The notes under the pieces were generated by a model, which was given only the letters and a program-made list of their open reading frames with translations, made no database searches and was not told the DNA's origin. From Patescibacteria group bacterium (GTDB lineage: Bacteria; Patescibacteriota; Patescibacteriia; UBA11705; DATKZF01), in assembly GCA_049319825.1 (NCBI GenBank), contig JBMORT010000006.1, positions 80,012-144,011 of the forward strand: DNA of 64,000 nt, given 5' to 3'. Below are positions 3,179 to 29,182 of the stretch, piece by piece (within the stretch, counting starts at the first letter, position 1; the number at the start of each line of letters is the position of its first letter). The translations under genes were made by a program, and so were the position numbers.

Positions 3179-3517
3179 ATGGTAGAAAAGAAAGACAAAG
3201 ATACAAAAGGGGGCGTCCAAAAGATTCGCATCAAGATAAAAGCGTACGATCATAAAATTATCGATCAATCCACTAAAACTATAATCGAAGCTGGCGAGCG
3301 GACAGGGGCTGCTATTCGCGGTCCTGTCCCGCTGCCGGTCGAAAAGAAAAAGTATACGGTTAACCGATCGACATTCGTTCATAAAAACGCTCGAGATCAG
3401 TATGAGATGAGAGTTCATAAAAGATTGATTGATATTTTAAGTCCCACGCCACAAACGATTGATGCTCTGATGAGTTTGAATTTGCCCGCGGGCGTGGATG
3501 TCGAGATCAAAATGTAA
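3179..3517 (+). CDS. rpsJ: 30S ribosomal protein S10
   Basis: Conserved S10 core ([11 protein letters not shown]...[24 protein letters not shown]); position follows tuf. Confidence 0.92.
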
Positions 3518-3677
3518 ATTCGCCTTTCCCTAAAGGTAACCGCCTGTTGGCGAAGTGTCTTATGGGAATGATGAATTTTACGGGAGAATTAAAAATTGAT
3601 TTAATTTCAAAAATAATTATAGCTAAAAGTCAGTACTGAAAAACCGGACCTTTAGTTCGGTTGTTTTATTCCCAAAT

Positions 3678-4445: not shown

Positions 4446-5147
4446 ATGTTAAAAGGAAAAGTATACAATCAAAGTGGTAAGGAGTTGCGGACCATTGACC
4501 TGCCGGAATTTATATTTGGAGTGGAGACGAATATCGCCGTAATTCATCAGGCGGTCGCAGCGCAACTCGGCAACAGTCGACAGGTTTTAGCTCACGCCAA
4601 AACTCGAGCCGAAGTCCGAGGCGGCGGTCGCAAGCCATGGCGCCAGAAAGGCACGGGTCGCGCCAGACATGGTTCGACCAGATCCCCGATCTGGATCGGC
4701 GGCGGTATTACTTTCGGTCCGACTAAGGAAAGAAATTTTTCTAAAAGGATCAATAAGAAAATGCGCCGAAAAGCGATTTTTATGGTATTATCCGATCGCT
4801 TGGCCGCTGGTGATCTGAAATTTGTCGATAAAATTGATTTTCCTCAAATAAAAACGAAAAAAGCGGCGGATTTATTGAATGATTTGAGAATCAATAAGGC
4901 TTTATTCATTATAGATGAACATAACCGAAATTTTATCAAGTCATGCGCTAATTTGCCGAAAGCGGCAGTGATTGACGCTGATAGTTTAAATGTTATTGAT
5001 TTGTTAAATCATAAAGACGTTATCATGACGGAAAATTCGGTTGATAAAATTGTGAGCACTTATAAAATGTCTTCAAAAGATGACCAGCCAAAGGCAAGCG
5101 AAAAGGCGGAACCGAAAGTCAAGAAGACTGTTAAAAGCAAAAAGTAA
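4446..5147 (+). CDS. rplD: 50S ribosomal protein L4 with a C-terminal Lys-rich extension
   Basis: L4 core ([17 protein letters not shown]); operon position. Confidence 0.9.
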
Positions 5148-5150
5148 GAT

Positions 5151-5552
5151 ATGGCCAGTCTATTAAAAAAATTAAAAGGTTCAAAGAAAGAGAGCGGTCA
5201 GCGGGCTGAATCCAAGCCGGCTATGGTAGAAAAAAAAGATGTTAAGAAAGCATTAAAGAAAAAGGACAGTACCGCCTATAAAATAGTTTTTAAACCATTG
5301 ATTACGGAAAAAGCTACGGATTTAGGATATGCGCATCAATATTCATTTATTGTTTCCAAATATGCCAGCAAAGCGCAGATTGCCGATACGGTAAGAAATA
5401 TCTATGGCGTGAGGCCGGTAAAAGTTAGAACGATTAATTTTTCCGGCAAAAACGTTCGCTATGGTCGTTTCGCGGGCAAACGGCGCGCTTGGAAAAAAGC
5501 GATCATTTCGCTGCGCCCGGAAGATAAAATCGAAGTTTACGAAGGAGTTTAA
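5151..5552 (+). CDS. rplW: 50S ribosomal protein L23 with an N-terminal Lys-rich extension
   Basis: L23 core (KPLITEKA...YSFIVSKYASKAQI); about 40-aa basic N-terminal extension. Confidence 0.87.
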   Translation: MASLLKKLKGSKKESGQRAESKPAMVEKKDVKKALKKKDSTAYKIVFKPLITEKATDLGYAHQYSFIVSKYASKAQIADTVRNIYGVRPVKVRTINFSGKNVRYGRFAGKRRAWKKAIISLRPEDKIEVYEGV

Positions 5553-17947: not shown

Positions 17948-18024
17948 TGGTGGGTGCGGATGGACTTGAACCATCGACCCCAACGTTATAAGCGTTGTGC
18001 TCTAACCAACTGAGCTACGCACCC
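17948..18024 (-). tRNA. tRNA with anticodon UAU (Ile, reading AUA)
   Basis: Reverse complement folds with acceptor GGGTGCG, anticodon stem CAACG/CGTTG, loop CTTATAA, T-loop TTCAAGT, encoded CCA. Confidence 0.72.
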
Positions 18025-18201
18025 ATCGGTATTGGAAATTGGTTATTGGTTTGGGGCAATGGGGATTGAAAGTTAGGATTCCAATGTTCATCTTTTCAAT
18101 TTTTACGGTGGCTTCATTCCCCTGATTCATGCTCCATGATAAAAAACGGTTCTTGCGATATTTTATCACAATTGAAATATTTTGTAAATAGCAATTATCA
18201 C

Positions 18202-23695: not shown

Positions 23696-24889
23696 ATGAG
23701 AGATTTCATCCATCTGGTTACGCCGCCGGATTTGCTGCTGCGCTATGCCATGGATAAAGAAAAGATAGCTCGAGAATACCCCAAAGGGTTTGAACATGCT
23801 CAAAGCATGGATCGTTTATTTCGAGCCATTGCCTCGCAGGAAGTATCCGATGCCAGGATGGCGATATCAGGCTGGCTTGAACAAACGGTCGGCGATGCGT
23901 TCCCTGCCGATATTTTATACGACATATTCACTGAAGCGATTCAGGAGGCCAAGGGGTTTCGCGAGGAATTGCTCAGAGAATTCGTGCCGGAGAAGGTGCG
24001 GTTTGTTTTCACGTCAGAAGGAATTTGCCGACCGACGAACGATCCCATCAATTTGCTTCGAATCATGCATGATCCCCCGGGAAATTCAATATATAGAAGG
24101 ATCAGATCATTTGAGGCGAATTTGTTTTTCAGCTTGGGGATGAGGTATTTGATTATGTTGATGAAAAATAAAAGTCGGGAAGCTTTTCTTTCTGATCTGA
24201 CAGAAATATTGGAAAGTGATTTTTTCTCCCGCGATTGCCACGGCGAATTCAGAAGAATTCTGGAAATCGTATATGATAAAAACAACTATCACCGATTCGT
24301 GAAATTTTTGGAAGCGGGCGAAAGCGCCAAACACATTTTTCGCTGGCCGTTATGGTTTAGAAAAATCAGTGTTTACGGCCGTGATATGTATGTTTTATAT
24401 GATAGCCGCGATAAGCGTATGCAGGACGTTTTTAGAAAAACATTGCTTGATTCAACCGCCGCCAATCCGATTGCCGCCGATGTAAACGCAATTACTTTCG
24501 TGTTCCTATCGGAGGAAGACCTAAAACAAGCTTTTGAATTGTTGACATCCAAAATATTCACTAATTTTGTCGGTGTAGTCAAGTATCGCATCGATGGAGA
24601 TGGCGATACCAATGGATACTCGGCGCGGACAAACGCTCCCAACAGACATTTTAAGGTCTGGCACCGGGGGAGATTGGTCGAGGTTCAAATGTTTTTATTC
24701 GGAAATTATTTTAATCGAAAATTTTCCATTGACGAGTCCAACCATCATCTTTATCGATTGCGCCAGGTTTGCGATGTCCTGCCGATGCTGGCGCCCCAAG
24801 ACGTTTATAATGTCGATTGGAAAGATGAGGAGCTTCTGCGCCAAATGCATCAATTGCAGATCTATCGTTCTTTGGCCAATTTTAATTAA
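23696..24889 (+). CDS. Hypothetical protein (397 aa); possible divergent RelA/SpoT-like nucleotidyltransferase fold
   Basis: AGGAGG RBS before the ATG at 23696. The C-terminal region KYRIDGDGDTNGYSARTN...LVEVQMF...HHLYR loosely matches RSH synthetase motifs (NGYxSxH, ExQIRT, HxxYK). Confidence 0.6.
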   Translation: MRDFIHLVTPPDLLLRYAMDKEKIAREYPKGFEHAQSMDRLFRAIASQEVSDARMAISGWLEQTVGDAFPADILYDIFTEAIQEAKGFREELLREFVPEKVRFVFTSEGICRPTNDPINLLRIMHDPPGNSIYRRIRSFEANLFFSLGMRYLIMLMKNKSREAFLSDLTEILESDFFSRDCHGEFRRILEIVYDKNNYHRFVKFLEAGESAKHIFRWPLWFRKISVYGRDMYVLYDSRDKRMQDVFRKTLLDSTAANPIAADVNAITFVFLSEEDLKQAFELLTSKIFTNFVGVVKYRIDGDGDTNGYSARTNAPNRHFKVWHRGRLVEVQMFLFGNYFNRKFSIDESNHHLYRLRQVCDVLPMLAPQDVYNVDWKDEELLRQMHQLQIYRSLANFN

Positions 24890-25010
24890 AAACCGCTTTT
24901 CATAAAAGCGGGTTTTTTTATACAAGTAAAGATAATACATCCGGAAAATAGAAATAAAAGAAGTTAAATAATAGATTTTGTTTAGCGACCTCATTTTCGA
25001 AATTTGAAAT

Positions 25011-25086
25011 TGGTCGGGGTAGTGAGACTTGAACTCACGACCTCATGCACCCCATGCATGCGCGCTACCAACTGCGCTATACCCCG
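25011..25086 (-). tRNA. tRNA-Pro (anticodon GGG)
   Basis: Reverse complement CGGGGTA...anticodon loop ATGGGGT...T-loop TTCAAGT...TACCCCG-A-CCA. Confidence 0.82.
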
Positions 25087-25087
25087 A

Positions 25088-25185
25088 CATCATGGATCAT
25101 GGATCATGGATCATGGATCATGGATCATGGATCATGGATCATGGATCATGGATCATGGATCATGGATCATGAATCATGGATCAAT
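25088..25185. repeat. Heptanucleotide tandem array (GATCATG/CATGGAT), ~13.5 copies
   Basis: 12 perfect units plus 1 variant from 25091 to 25181, abutting the tRNA-Pro 5' end. Each unit contains GATC and CATG. Confidence 0.95.
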
Positions 25186-25241
25186 GAAACCTGGAATACG
25201 AATTGATTTTAACAAAAAAATTCGTTTTTGTAAACGCTATT

Positions 25242-26372
25242 TTAGATTAAATTTTTTAAGTATTCCAGCACCTGTTCTTTGGCTGAAGCGAAATTGGCAG
25301 TGTCAATCTTGACCCGAATTAAGTCAGCGGCGCCGGTCGGATTGAATTCCGAAAAATTTTTAAGAAGATCGATGTCTTTTTCCGTTTTAATGATGCAGTG
25401 AGTGGCACTAGCATCGGTTTGAAAAAAAATGGCGGTGTGCTGAATCGAGGGTATGCTGCTGATCAGCTCATCGATAACTTCCACCAAATCTTTGCTGGAG
25501 CTGTTGTTGGACTTGAAATCTTCGGCGGTTACGCGTGACCAGGCGATTTTTTGATCGGGATCCGTCTCCAGATGGCTGAGTACCGTGCCCCAGAGTTTAA
25601 GTGTGCCGACAGATTTTGTTTGATAAAGGTTTTTAATAATTAAATCGCGCTGAGCACCGCTGGCGATCAGCTGGGAGGCGATGTTTAGCGAACGCGGAGT
25701 GACTTTTTTATGTCGAAAGCTTTTGGTCTTGTCGATCATGCCGGTCAATAGATAGGTGGCGATGGTTTCATCGATCAGGCTGTCATCGATCGAAGTGAAC
25801 AGTTCGTATAAAATTTCAGCAACGGAAACGGCGGTGACATTAACCATGTTGGTGTGGCCGAAATGTTCATTCTCCGGCAGATTGCAAATGTTAATGATCG
25901 GTGTGTTATAAAAAAAATCAGGATTGTTTTCGTAGATTTTGTCGAGCGATTCGAGATCCGGCGTGTTGAGAGTGAAAATTAAATCATGACGGTATTCTGA
26001 ATTGGAGCAGCTGACGCGATCTTTGGTGAGCTCGCCATTTTTGGGAGTGATAAATATTTTGAGACGATCATCAATGACTTTATAGCTGAATTTATCAACT
26101 TGAGAATTTTGCAGATCAAGATCGATAACCAATTTTCGGAGATTAGTCAAGTCTGGTTTGATGGTATCGGTTCGCGGTAAAAAACTGATATTGGTGGGGA
26201 TTTTAAAATTAGGGCAGACAATATCTCCCTGTTTATCGAGCTTTTTCAGCCAGAAAGCCAGCGCCAAGCTGGAAGCGATCACGTCGGTGCCGTTATTGTT
26301 TCTGAAGGTTATCAGCGGGCTCCGACTTCTTTTGACTGATTCGTAAATTTGTTGCGTGACATTAAGAGCCAT
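25242..26372 (-). CDS. DHH/DHHA1 phosphoesterase-like protein (NrnA-like) with degenerate catalytic motifs
   Basis: DHH-family architecture with degenerate metal-ligand positions (NLPENEHFGH where DHH is expected). The ATG at 26372 is preferred; the track start at 26456 is a TTG. Confidence 0.5.
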   Translation of the reverse strand: MALNVTQQIYESVKRSRSPLITFRNNNGTDVIASSLALAFWLKKLDKQGDIVCPNFKIPTNISFLPRTDTIKPDLTNLRKLVIDLDLQNSQVDKFSYKVIDDRLKIFITPKNGELTKDRVSCSNSEYRHDLIFTLNTPDLESLDKIYENNPDFFYNTPIINICNLPENEHFGHTNMVNVTAVSVAEILYELFTSIDDSLIDETIATYLLTGMIDKTKSFRHKKVTPRSLNIASQLIASGAQRDLIIKNLYQTKSVGTLKLWGTVLSHLETDPDQKIAWSRVTAEDFKSNNSSSKDLVEVIDELISSIPSIQHTAIFFQTDASATHCIIKTEKDIDLLKNFSEFNPTGAADLIRVKIDTANFASAKEQVLEYLKNLI

Positions 26373-26472: not shown

Positions 26473-26545
26473 CAAGCGATGCTAATATACCTGCCTGCCG
26501 CCTGCCTGACGGCAGTCAGGGCAGGCAGGTATATTAGCATCGATG
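26473..26545. promoter_or_regulatory. Large palindromic element with two outward-facing promoter-like arms, between the DHH-like gene and valS
   Basis: A 23-bp perfect inverted repeat (CGATGCTAATATACCTGCCTGCC / GGCAGGCAGGTATATTAGCATCG). The right arm abuts the valS ATG. Confidence 0.5.
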
Positions 26546-29182
26546 TTTATGGAAAAGGCATACGAACCCCAAAAATTCGAGGATGAAATTTATAAAAAAT
26601 GGGAAGTAAAAGAATTATTCAATCCCGATAAAGTAAAAGAGCTCCGTGCTGTCGGCAGGGATTCTTTTTCGATCGTGCTGCCGCCGCCGAATGTCACCGG
26701 CACGCTTCATTTGGGCCACGCGGCCATGCTGGCGATCGAAGACCTGATGATCCGCTATCACCGCATGAAAGGATTTGATACGGTTTGGATCCCGGGAACT
26801 GATCACGCGGCCATTGCCACGCAAAATGTTGTGGAAAAGAAAATTTTGAAAGAAACCGGAAAAACCAGGCATGACCTGGGCCGGGAAAGATTTTTGGCGG
26901 AAGTTGAAAAATTTGTCATTCAGTCAAAGGATACCATTCATAAGCAAGTCCGCAAAATGGGCTCGAGCCTGGATTGGTCGAGAGAGGGTTATACCCTGGA
27001 CGAGACGCGAAGCCGGGCAGTGCGCAAAGTTTTTAAAATGATGTATGATGACGGTTTGATTTACCGCGGCTACAGAATTGTGAATTGGTGCCCGCGCTGC
27101 CAGTCCACTCTGGCTGACGATGAAGTTGAATATAAAGATGAGTCGACTAAGCTTTATTATTTCAAATACGATAAGAATTTTCCGATCACCATTGCCACCA
27201 CCAGACCGGAAACCAAGCTGGGTGACACGGCAGTGGCGGTCAATCCCGACGATGAGCGATATAAAAAATATGTCGGCCAGACTTTTGACGTTGATTTTGT
27301 CGGCGTGCCTTTGAAAATAAAAGTCATTGCCGATAAAGCAGTCGATCCGGCCTTCGGCACCGGAGCGCTCGGCGTGACGCCGGCTCACAGCATGGTTGAT
27401 TATGAAATGGCGCAAAAAAATAATTTGCCAATCATCAAGGTAATTGATGAAGAGGGCAAAATGACAGACAAAGTCGGAGATTTTTCCGGCATGACCGCGA
27501 TTGAAGCCAGAGAAGCGGTGGTTAAGGCCTTAGAAAAAGCCGGACTGCAGGAAAAAGTCGAGGACGCGGAGCACAAACTGTCCAGCTGCTACCGCTGCGG
27601 CACCGCGGTCGAGCCTCTGCCTTCAGAGCAATGGTTTGTCAGCGTGGATAAAAAAGTCAAGCGGATCGGCGGCCAGAGCTTAAAGGAAAAAGCGATTGAA
27701 GTGATTAAAAATAAAAAAATTGAAATCATTCCGGAAAGATTTGAAAAAGTATATTTAAACTGGATGGAAAATCTGCATGATTGGTGCATTTCGCGTCAGA
27801 TTTGGTTCGGCCATCGTATTCCTGTTTGGTATAAAGGCGAGGCAAGAGGCAAGAGGCAAGAGGCAGAAGTGTATGTGGGTGAAGAAGCGCCGGAGGGAGC
27901 AGGATGGGTTCAGGATGAAGATACGCTGGACACTTGGTTTTCTTCAGGTTTATGGACATTCACCACTTTGCTGAAAAAAGATTTTAAGGATTTTGAAAAA
28001 AAACATAATTCTGACCTAAAAAGATTTCATCCGATTTCGGTGATGGAAACAGCTTATGATATTTTGTTTTTCTGGGTGGCGCGAATGATTTTGATGACAA
28101 ATTATGTAATGGAAGAAATTCCATTTGAAAAAGTATATTTTCACGGCCTTGTCCGCGACAAGGAAGGCAAGAAGATGTCAAAATCCAGGCCGGAAACAGC
28201 CATTGACCCGATAATCGTCGGCGATAAATACGGCTATGACGCGGTGCGCCTGAGCTTTTTGATCGGCGCCACCCCGGGAAACGATGTCAGATTGTATGAA
28301 GAGAAAATCGAAGGTTTTCGAAACTTCGTCAATAAGCTTTGGAATATTTCTCGATTTATCATTTCTCAAACACAAGGAAAGACAGAAGTTAAGAAAGTGA
28401 AGCCAAAGACCTTGGCGGATAAATGGATTTTGTCGCGACTTAATACGGTTATCAAAGAAGTTACCGAGTCCTTAGATAGTTATCAGTTTTCCGCGGCCGG
28501 CGAAAAGCTGAGAGATTTCACGTATAATGAATTGGCTGACTGGTATCTGGAAGTCGCTAAAGTGGAAAAAGGCAAAGACGAAATCTTGGCGCATATTTTG
28601 GATAGCGTTCTGCGGCTCTGGCATCCGTTCGTGCCGTTTGTGACCGAAGCTATTTTCAGCGAGACAAGCAAGACAAGTATTATGATTCAGGATTGGCCGA
28701 AAGTAAGTAAGAGACTGATTGATGATCAGGCGGAAAAAGAATTTGTCAAAATAAAAGAAGTGATTACGGCCATCAGAAATTTGCGAGCTGAAAACAATGT
28801 CGAACCGGCCAAAAAAATCAAAGCGCAATTTGTTTGCCAGAAAAAGCTTAAAGAAGACGAAGCAATAATTAAAGCTTTGGCTCGATTAGATTCTATTGAG
28901 TATGTTGATGTGGCTGAAAAGCCCGCTGCTTCTGGCGTGGTTGAAGATATTGAAATTTATCTGCCGCTAAAGGGACTGATTGATATTGAAAAAGAAAAAT
29001 CCAGACTTGAAAAGGAAATTGAAAATGTAAAAAAGTACGTTGATTCACAGGAAAAGAAATTGGGTAATGATGAATTTGTCAAAAACGCGCCGGCAAATGT
29101 TGTGGAGGGCGAGAAAGCGAAGCTGGCGGAGGCAAAGGAAAAATTAGAAAAATTAAATAATCAATTAGAAGGATTAAAATAA
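26543..29182 (+). CDS. valS: Valyl-tRNA synthetase
   Basis: HIGH-type PPPNVTGTLHLGHA; KMSKS; C-terminal coiled coil; 879 aa. Confidence 0.95.
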   Translation: MFMEKAYEPQKFEDEIYKKWEVKELFNPDKVKELRAVGRDSFSIVLPPPNVTGTLHLGHAAMLAIEDLMIRYHRMKGFDTVWIPGTDHAAIATQNVVEKKILKETGKTRHDLGRERFLAEVEKFVIQSKDTIHKQVRKMGSSLDWSREGYTLDETRSRAVRKVFKMMYDDGLIYRGYRIVNWCPRCQSTLADDEVEYKDESTKLYYFKYDKNFPITIATTRPETKLGDTAVAVNPDDERYKKYVGQTFDVDFVGVPLKIKVIADKAVDPAFGTGALGVTPAHSMVDYEMAQKNNLPIIKVIDEEGKMTDKVGDFSGMTAIEAREAVVKALEKAGLQEKVEDAEHKLSSCYRCGTAVEPLPSEQWFVSVDKKVKRIGGQSLKEKAIEVIKNKKIEIIPERFEKVYLNWMENLHDWCISRQIWFGHRIPVWYKGEARGKRQEAEVYVGEEAPEGAGWVQDEDTLDTWFSSGLWTFTTLLKKDFKDFEKKHNSDLKRFHPISVMETAYDILFFWVARMILMTNYVMEEIPFEKVYFHGLVRDKEGKKMSKSRPETAIDPIIVGDKYGYDAVRLSFLIGATPGNDVRLYEEKIEGFRNFVNKLWNISRFIISQTQGKTEVKKVKPKTLADKWILSRLNTVIKEVTESLDSYQFSAAGEKLRDFTYNELADWYLEVAKVEKGKDEILAHILDSVLRLWHPFVPFVTEAIFSETSKTSIMIQDWPKVSKRLIDDQAEKEFVKIKEVITAIRNLRAENNVEPAKKIKAQFVCQKKLKEDEAIIKALARLDSIEYVDVAEKPAASGVVEDIEIYLPLKGLIDIEKEKSRLEKEIENVKKYVDSQEKKLGNDEFVKNAPANVVEGEKAKLAEAKEKLEKLNNQLEGLK

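Follow-up and report, generated by a model that had tools for sequence, protein, structure and literature searches.

SSR contingency loci typically target surface, restriction-modification or host-interaction genes. In H. influenzae, the TA tract of hifA/hifB separates the −35 box from the −10 box. This tract is listed as an SSR in PMC2651432, which also describes heptamer tracts (TGAAAGA/ATCTTTC) of 13–38 units located ~70–105 bp upstream of hmw1A/hmw2A, where the number of units modulates expression. More generally, heptamers are described as the most abundant class of SSRs with 5–11-nt units in most prokaryotic genomes, and polymerase slippage has been proposed as their origin (PMC4679880; PMC4692102). 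Among these, the TAACTGA repeats of Beggiatoaceae and cyanobacteria are reported as intergenic repeats a short way upstream of genes; they frequently occur together with other heptamers and cause contig breaks, one heptamer occurring at >100 sites per genome with 2–6 copies at each (PMC4679880).

The heptanucleotide array reported here was found in a 64-kb stretch of DNA (the window) from the MAG of an environmental Patescibacteria organism. Prokaryotic SSRs with 5–11-nt units are the known kind to which it is assigned. It shares with them the near-perfect, intergenic, head-to-tail 7-nt copies, the lineage-specific occurrence with absence from the orthologous site of relatives, and the presence of other heptamer arrays scattered in related genomes, but differs in being situated in the predicted leader of a tRNA gene. 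Listed in the direction of the tRNA gene, the locus comprises the following features:

25242–26372, minus strand: gene of a DHH-family phosphoesterase (exact match to MFZ5365089.1)
25206–25234, minus strand: sigma-70-type promoter with extended −10 box (promoter scan, 10/12 with TG)
25186–25205, minus strand: non-repetitive stretch from the −10 box to the array (from its position relative to the promoter)
25089–25185, minus strand (the strand of the tRNA): heptanucleotide tandem array (TRF and in-register read-out)
25011–25086, minus strand: tRNA-Pro(GGG) gene with encoded CCA end (ARAGORN; Rfam tRNA model, 66 bits)
24893–24911, both strands: bidirectional terminator-like hairpin flanked by T-runs (terminator scan)
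23696–24889, plus strand: gene of a 397-aa hypothetical protein, convergent with tRNA-Pro (exact match to MFZ5365087.1)

The array is by far the strongest tandem repeat detected in the window by TRF, with a period of 7, 13.6 copies, 97% matches and a score of 183 at 25089–25183. Its unit is ATCATGG, which reads CCATGAT on the strand of the tRNA. In register, 11 copies of ATCATGG are followed by ATCATGA, a further ATCATGG and a partial unit ATCA(AT); on the tRNA strand this corresponds to (CCATGAT)n with 12 perfect units, one TCATGAT variant, in second place when counted from the promoter side, plus a partial unit. The array thus consists of short units repeated head-to-tail at high identity, 12/13 full units being perfect, and the composition given by the sequence-only reading in the CATGGAT register (12 perfect units plus one CATGAAT) is borne out by the read-out. 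The same reading had counted 13 sites each for CATG and GATC. The former number is correct, while GATC occurs 12 rather than 13 times, one site being lost in the ATCATGA variant, which gives 25 palindromic 4-mers in 97 bp.

A two-unit pattern with up to two mismatches is matched 14 times as compared to 0.70 times expected, a number reached by 0/100 shuffles. No other array of the ATCATGG unit is present within the 64-kb window; a similar 14-mer at 18127, a single match with two mismatches, lies within the chance expectation of 0.70 and was discarded. A coding repeat was discarded as well, since the two plus-strand ORFs in question (25004–25312 and 25045–25206, with HGSWIMD repeats) are artefacts that run across the tRNA gene.

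In agreement with the position originally assigned to it, the array lies upstream of the minus-strand tRNA-Pro gene and downstream of the DHH gene. The latter ends 57 nt upstream of the array, with its stop codon 7 nt before the −35 box. At the other end the array begins 2 nt 5′ of the mature tRNA-Pro(GGG) end, and the junction reads ...CCATGATCCATGATGT|CGGGG on the tRNA strand. The NCBI entries matched by the two flanking proteins lie on a contig of 365 kb; the one for the DHH protein (MFZ5365089.1) is titled 'MAG: DHH family phosphoesterase [Patescibacteria group bacterium]', and homologues of this protein carry PF01368. A Pfam search with the two flanking proteins assigned no family to either, and the DHH protein and the 397-aa neighbor each form a 90%-identity cluster of size 1. 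The family of the 397-aa protein has only 5 members among 5.8 billion database proteins, to which a 41%-identical orthologue at the matching position in the relative GCA_035528115.1 is to be added.

The array as such, or its copy number, might be a product of the assembler or the locus a chimeric join. The De Bruijn contigs assembled from the same sequencing run do break inside the array from both sides, and the exact number of 13 units is taken from the MAG assembly alone. However, in this independent Logan assembly (run SRR32167788) the array is entered from both flanks with identical junctions: one contig covers the variant unit from the DHH side, a second one enters from the tRNA side, and both (L001 and L002) end ~31 nt into perfect repeat. 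Both unique junctions being reproduced, the array is therefore present in the reads. Furthermore, the flanking genes are neighbors in a relative, too. In GCA_035528115.1 the genes of ValRS (valyl-tRNA synthetase) and the DHH protein, the promoter, tRNA-Pro(GGG) and the orthologue of the 397-aa neighbor (E = 7e-111) follow each other in this order. This shows the join to be genuine, so that uncertainty is confined to the exact number of units, and we consider an assembly artefact very improbable. Conservation of the gene order on both sides also leaves the proposed recombination hotspot beside the tRNA unsupported as far as the array is concerned. A tRNA-linked integration site (attB/attL/attR) would be marked by a direct repeat of the 3′ segment of the tRNA and by an integrase or foreign DNA beside it; the array, in contrast, is located on the 5′ side of the tRNA and contains no tRNA sequence.

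Relatives of the locus were collected as homologues of the DHH protein, with 62–69% identity for the nearest ones, and traced to their contigs. The best-sampled relative is GCA_035528115.1, represented together with other assemblies of it by the contigs L003–L006 and L167. Here, promoter and tRNA-Pro(GGG) are kept, the gap between −10 box and tRNA amounts to 25 nt, and the array is absent. The corresponding gap in the window spans 119 nt; without the 97-nt array ~22–24 nt remain, which is about the length found in L003, so that the array represents a clean lineage-specific addition. A second relative, L007, has a non-repetitive gap of 73 nt ahead of tRNA-Pro. A degenerate heptamer-like stretch of 36 nt (TTGATTCATGATCCATTGTTCCATGATTCATGA) is located in L007 just past the DHH stop codon; it lies upstream of the L007 promoter and was rejected as a counterpart of the array, not being positionally homologous. 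A comparison of the same junction in related genomes had been proposed by the sequence-only reading; it now covers two relatives with an orthologous tRNA-Pro junction, neither of which harbors an equivalent array. Such an absence is one of the two findings by which that reading would have recognized a neutral microsatellite. Of 34 loci retrieved from metagenomes with an alignment of DHH proteins, a single one has tRNA-Pro downstream, namely that of the relative GCA_035528115.1 already sampled, and the contigs of the 5 members of the neighbor family (one without retrievable DNA) contain no further tRNA-Pro junction.

Short arrays of period 7 with various other units are frequent in ~200 kb of related loci, in the intergenic DNA of the clade, for example AATTTCT with 7.7, TAACCCA with 7 and CAAATTA with 4.7 copies. 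Apart from the array itself, the longest arrays of this period in the window and these loci have ~7–8 imperfect copies, and none comes near 13 perfect ones. In L013, TGTTATG (3.6 copies) and TGTTTCA (3.3 copies) follow just after the DHH gene, tRNA-Pro being absent there. Such compound heptamer arrays in the Patescibacteria loci L013 and L031 are reminiscent of the TAACTGA repeats. The window differs from the latter in having a single 13-unit array in 64 kb, with no second array of the unit, in contrast to a dispersed family, in which one heptamer is repeated in tandem at many intergenic sites. The compound region of L031 (~3440–3565, Patescibacteria MAG JAHIUG010000093.1) is composed of (ACACATA)4 ... 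(TGATACG)n (TGATCCA)4. It is located downstream of a GreA-like gene and extends as far as the start codon of the next gene, which encodes a putative lysyl-tRNA synthetase. The CCATGAT unit of the window is present in it, and its orientation relative to the gene that follows is the same in both loci.

A repeat of another kind is present at the tRNA-Pro locus of the relative itself. A 67-nt tandem repeat starts within the last 11 nt of tRNA-Pro(GGG) (CACCCCGACCA...) and occupies L003 5259–5455, L004 5259–5590 and L167 3759–4157, with 2.9, 4.9 and 5.9 copies, respectively. The genomes behind these three assemblies are near-identical, and a further two contigs break at the repeat. The tRNA-Pro locus of the relative is hence the site of a copy-number-variable repeat, although this is not the heptamer and lies 3′ of the tRNA.

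The promoter of tRNA-Pro reads TTTACA-17-TGtTAAAAT, with the hexamers at 25234–25229 and 25211–25206 and a non-repetitive 17-nt spacer that carries a T-run and the TGt of the extended −10 box. The motif TTTACW-N17-TAWWAT occurs twice on both strands of the 64 kb, as compared to an expected number of 0.12, and both copies are found upstream of tRNA operons on the correct strand, the second one at 18188–18160 ahead of the tRNA-Ile(UAU)/tRNA-Val operon. In the relatives, the motif precedes both tRNA-Pro and tRNA-Ile in L003 and L007 and tRNA-Ile in L012. In the form TTTAC(A/T)-N17 (with TGn)-TA(A/T)(A/T)AT it is located at 5140–5168 and 6778–6806 of L003, 5174–5202 and 5836–5864 of L007 and 2841–2869 of L012. 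In the sequences scanned it was not found outside the fronts of tRNA-Pro and of the tRNA-Ile/Val operon. On this distribution we take TTTACA-17-TGtTAAAAT as the tRNA promoter of the clade; as TTTACA-N17 (with TGn)-TAAAAT, it provides a compact signature useful for annotating genomes of the clade.

One of the roles suggested at the outset for the array was that of a variable-length promoter spacer. Both hexamers lie upstream of the array and are separated by a normal 17-nt spacer, and therefore the array is not the promoter spacer. It shares with the TA tract of hifA/hifB the location in a gene control region. In contrast to that tract, however, the −35 and −10 boxes of the window are both upstream of the array and a fixed distance apart, the interval between them is free of any repeat, and the array starts 20 nt downstream of the −10 box. 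It is thus placed between the end of the −10 box (25206) and the 5′ end of the tRNA (25086), i.e. in the predicted leader. From the position of the promoter motif, transcription is predicted to start near 25199, and the transcribed leader would comprise ~113 nt, ~97 nt of which are array. At the other end, the hairpin at 24893–24911 could terminate both the tRNA transcript and that of the convergent 397-aa protein gene.

No stable structure is predicted for this leader. As RNA it folds with −30.2 kcal/mol compared to a mean of −36.1 kcal/mol for shuffled sequences (z = +1.87), thus it is no more stable than these, and for the leader as single-stranded DNA the fold z-score is +3.0. Both a structured leader RNA and a slipped-DNA hairpin were rejected, as the two scores are worse than those of the shuffles. 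When the complete precursor is folded, the cloverleaf of the tRNA is intact in the minimum-energy structure. In Rfam, the tRNA alone scores above threshold; matches of the array to miRNA hairpins are sub-threshold with 23–28 bits against gathering scores of 59–90 and were disregarded. A repetitive and unstructured RNA would suit single-strand binders, and so would the heptamer periodicity. Hence (CCAUGAU)n, as RNA or as DNA repeat, might be imagined to recruit one protein per unit, e.g. a cold-shock-type OB-fold or a ring-shaped RNA-binding protein, in the manner reported for CspB on heptamer direct repeats with one protein per unit (PMC4679880). Against such a binding platform, neither the unit nor any array is conserved at the orthologous site, the heptamer array occurs only once in the window, and no candidate binding protein was found in this analysis. 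We regard this possibility as extremely unlikely.

The 5′ leader of tRNA precursors is removed by RNase P. With a conserved promoter directly upstream of the repeat and a tRNA directly downstream, the array is probably a recently expanded, lineage-specific heptanucleotide SSR located in the discarded part of a tRNA precursor, where it is neutral or nearly so. According to this explanation, slipped-strand mispairing during replication would have expanded a heptamer inside a short 5′ leader of tRNA-Pro(GGG), and transcription from the promoter would copy the repeat into the tRNA precursor. The unstructured (CCAUGAU)n segment of ~97 nt would then be cut off by RNase P when the mature 5′ end is formed, so that the array would cause at most a quantitative change in the yield of tRNA-Pro. 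The near-perfect units point to a recent or ongoing expansion and, consequently, to a high rate of length change; the label of a slippage-prone SSR is therefore reasonable, and length instability at the tRNA-Pro locus is assumed here. Since the leader would be discarded, changes in its length should be largely tolerated, which makes the array most likely neutral or nearly so. Two findings count against this explanation, namely that the 13 near-perfect copies far exceed the other arrays of period 7 in the window and in ~200 kb of relatives, and that the gap between −10 box and tRNA is also long in the second tRNA operon of the window. As a neutral microsatellite, the array would be a candidate strain-typing marker for an uncultured Patescibacteria lineage. 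Furthermore, it marks a break point of assemblies, as in the Logan contigs, and it would illustrate that a discarded tRNA leader is able to absorb a repeat of ~100 nt.

The nearest functional analogue of the array, judged by its arrangement, is the heptamer tract of hmw1A/hmw2A described above, which has a heptamer unit and a similar copy number as well and is likewise positioned between promoter elements and gene. By analogy, the array might act as an expression rheostat or contingency locus, in which slippage alters the number of units between promoter and tRNA and thereby the amount of mature tRNA-Pro(GGG), be it via elongation, precursor stability or RNase P efficiency. The placement of the array exactly between the conserved promoter and the gene would be appropriate for such a function, as would its length and near-perfect repetition, from which hypermutability is expected, and the CCAUG repeats of the leader could, judging from the sequence, pair with CAUGG of the tRNA anticodon arm. 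In the predicted fold of the precursor, however, the cloverleaf is kept, and the orthologous loci of the relatives manage without any array, their gaps being 25 or 73 nt long. Moreover, the target is a housekeeping tRNA, tRNA-Pro(GGG), and neither a surface nor a restriction-modification gene. The hmw tracts control an adhesin mRNA of a host-adapted pathogen with documented strain variation, whereas the array of the window belongs to a tRNA gene of an environmental MAG. Altogether, a rheostat appears unlikely, and the neutral SSR in a discarded leader is preferred. No support for a function of the array was found in the data described here; tuning of tRNA output is possible, and the finding would matter more if the number of units changed the supply of tRNA-Pro(GGG).

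Exact matches to three ATCATGG units were sought in 185,579 species genomes and a viral collection. Arrays of at least three units were found in 71 stretches of the species genomes, distributed over many phyla, and in 7 stretches of the viral collection, most of the longer ones in regions that lack a long open reading frame. Examples of longer arrays are:

Phycisphaeraceae MAG, 19 units
Acinetobacter sp. MB5, 17 units (L047 331–449)
Endozoicomonas MAG, 14 units
Pseudomonas atacamensis, 12 units
Acinetobacter sp. ANC 4633, 11 units (L052 5718–5794)
Saccharibacteria MAG, 10 units
Acinetobacter sp. ANC 3789, 9 units (L055 789–851)

The three (CCATGAT)n arrays of Acinetobacter have near-identical flanks and are fused to a 9-mer array, (TCCAATGAT)n; those in L052 and L055 adjoin the same DAHP-synthase-like gene. 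Their different numbers of units indicate, at the level of the sequences compared, that (CCATGAT)n arrays change in length. A general link between the heptamer and tRNA genes was rejected, which also speaks against the rheostat, since a tRNA is located within 500 nt of only 3/80 arrays and abuts none of them.

In some genomes the unit is present more than once. An Acidimicrobiaceae MAG (CAYTWC01; L039, L041, L051, L057, L075, L079, L084) contains an ATCATGG array on many separate contigs, and in an ANME-1 MAG (L020, L054, L059) arrays are likewise found on separate contigs. In both MAGs many of these arrays are positioned at the end of a contig or close to it, which points to a heptamer family dispersed over the genome or, alternatively, to assembly breaks driven by the repeat.

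Each perfect unit combines two palindromes, and the resulting site density is extreme. The array might hence offer closely packed sites to a Dam-type or CATG-specific methyltransferase, or to a protein that reads methylation, which would render transcription of the tRNA or local replication methylation-sensitive; a methylation-sensitive or restriction-target cluster had indeed been among the initial suggestions. Yet the frequencies of both sites are unbiased over the window (observed/expected 0.96 for GATC and 1.21 for CATG), so that there is no signal of selection elsewhere in it, and no ORF of at least 150 aa within the 64-kb window contains the (D/N/S)PP(Y/F/W) motif of N6-methyltransferases. 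The sites are located downstream of the promoter and none inside it. Three control heptamers of the same composition, devoid of GATC and CATG, are found in 27, 12 and 34 stretches of the viral collection as compared to 7 for ATCATGG. Control heptamers thus form arrays of three or more units at least as often, and the unit with its two palindromes therefore shows no unusual tendency to form or keep arrays, which removes any special status of a GATC/CATG unit. Heptamer arrays at comparable sites in relatives consist of other units and lack GATC. Readers of GATC clusters of the SeqA type are, to our knowledge, confined to Gammaproteobacteria, which counts against a methylation-dependent function, too. 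Such a function is thus hardly to be expected, and the palindromes are best explained as a by-product of whichever unit happened to expand.

The second tRNA operon of the window shows a long leader as well:

18025–18188, minus strand: leader region of the tRNA-Ile(UAU)/tRNA-Val operon, with 135 nt between −10 box and tRNA
17948–18024: tRNA-Ile(UAU) gene

In relatives the corresponding gap is 21–25 nt. The leader of tRNA-Ile ends in the heptamers ACCAATA, ACCAATT and TCCAATA, 5 nt from the 5′ end of the tRNA, and is unstructured (z = +0.94). The gap is a hint that the organism of the window may tolerate or favor long leaders. A more far-reaching idea is a hypermutable 'volume control' of a single tRNA isoacceptor, by which the length of the leader would determine maturation or yield of tRNA-Pro(GGG) and lead to cell-to-cell variation in the decoding of CCC and CCU. 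If this were true, the long heptamer-ended leader of tRNA-Ile(UAU) would belong to this strategy as well, and the array would constitute a contingency locus that affects the translation machinery, unlike those of surface proteins. We know of no described case of SSR-driven control of a tRNA gene, and hold this idea to be highly improbable.

An anticodon UAU is an unusual bacterial way of reading AUA. The tRNA-Ile(UAU) gene is also present in L003, L007, L011 and many of the loci L167–L194, and its position beside tRNA-Val(GAC), often just downstream of the DHH gene, is conserved across the clade.

Finally, the window contains one further perfect heptamer repeat:

27839–27865, plus strand: GAGGCAA, 3.9 copies, inside the ValRS ORF (26543–29182)

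It encodes the segment ...ARGKRQEAE... of valyl-tRNA synthetase, and the gain or loss of one GAGGCAA unit would cause a frameshift in this essential gene.
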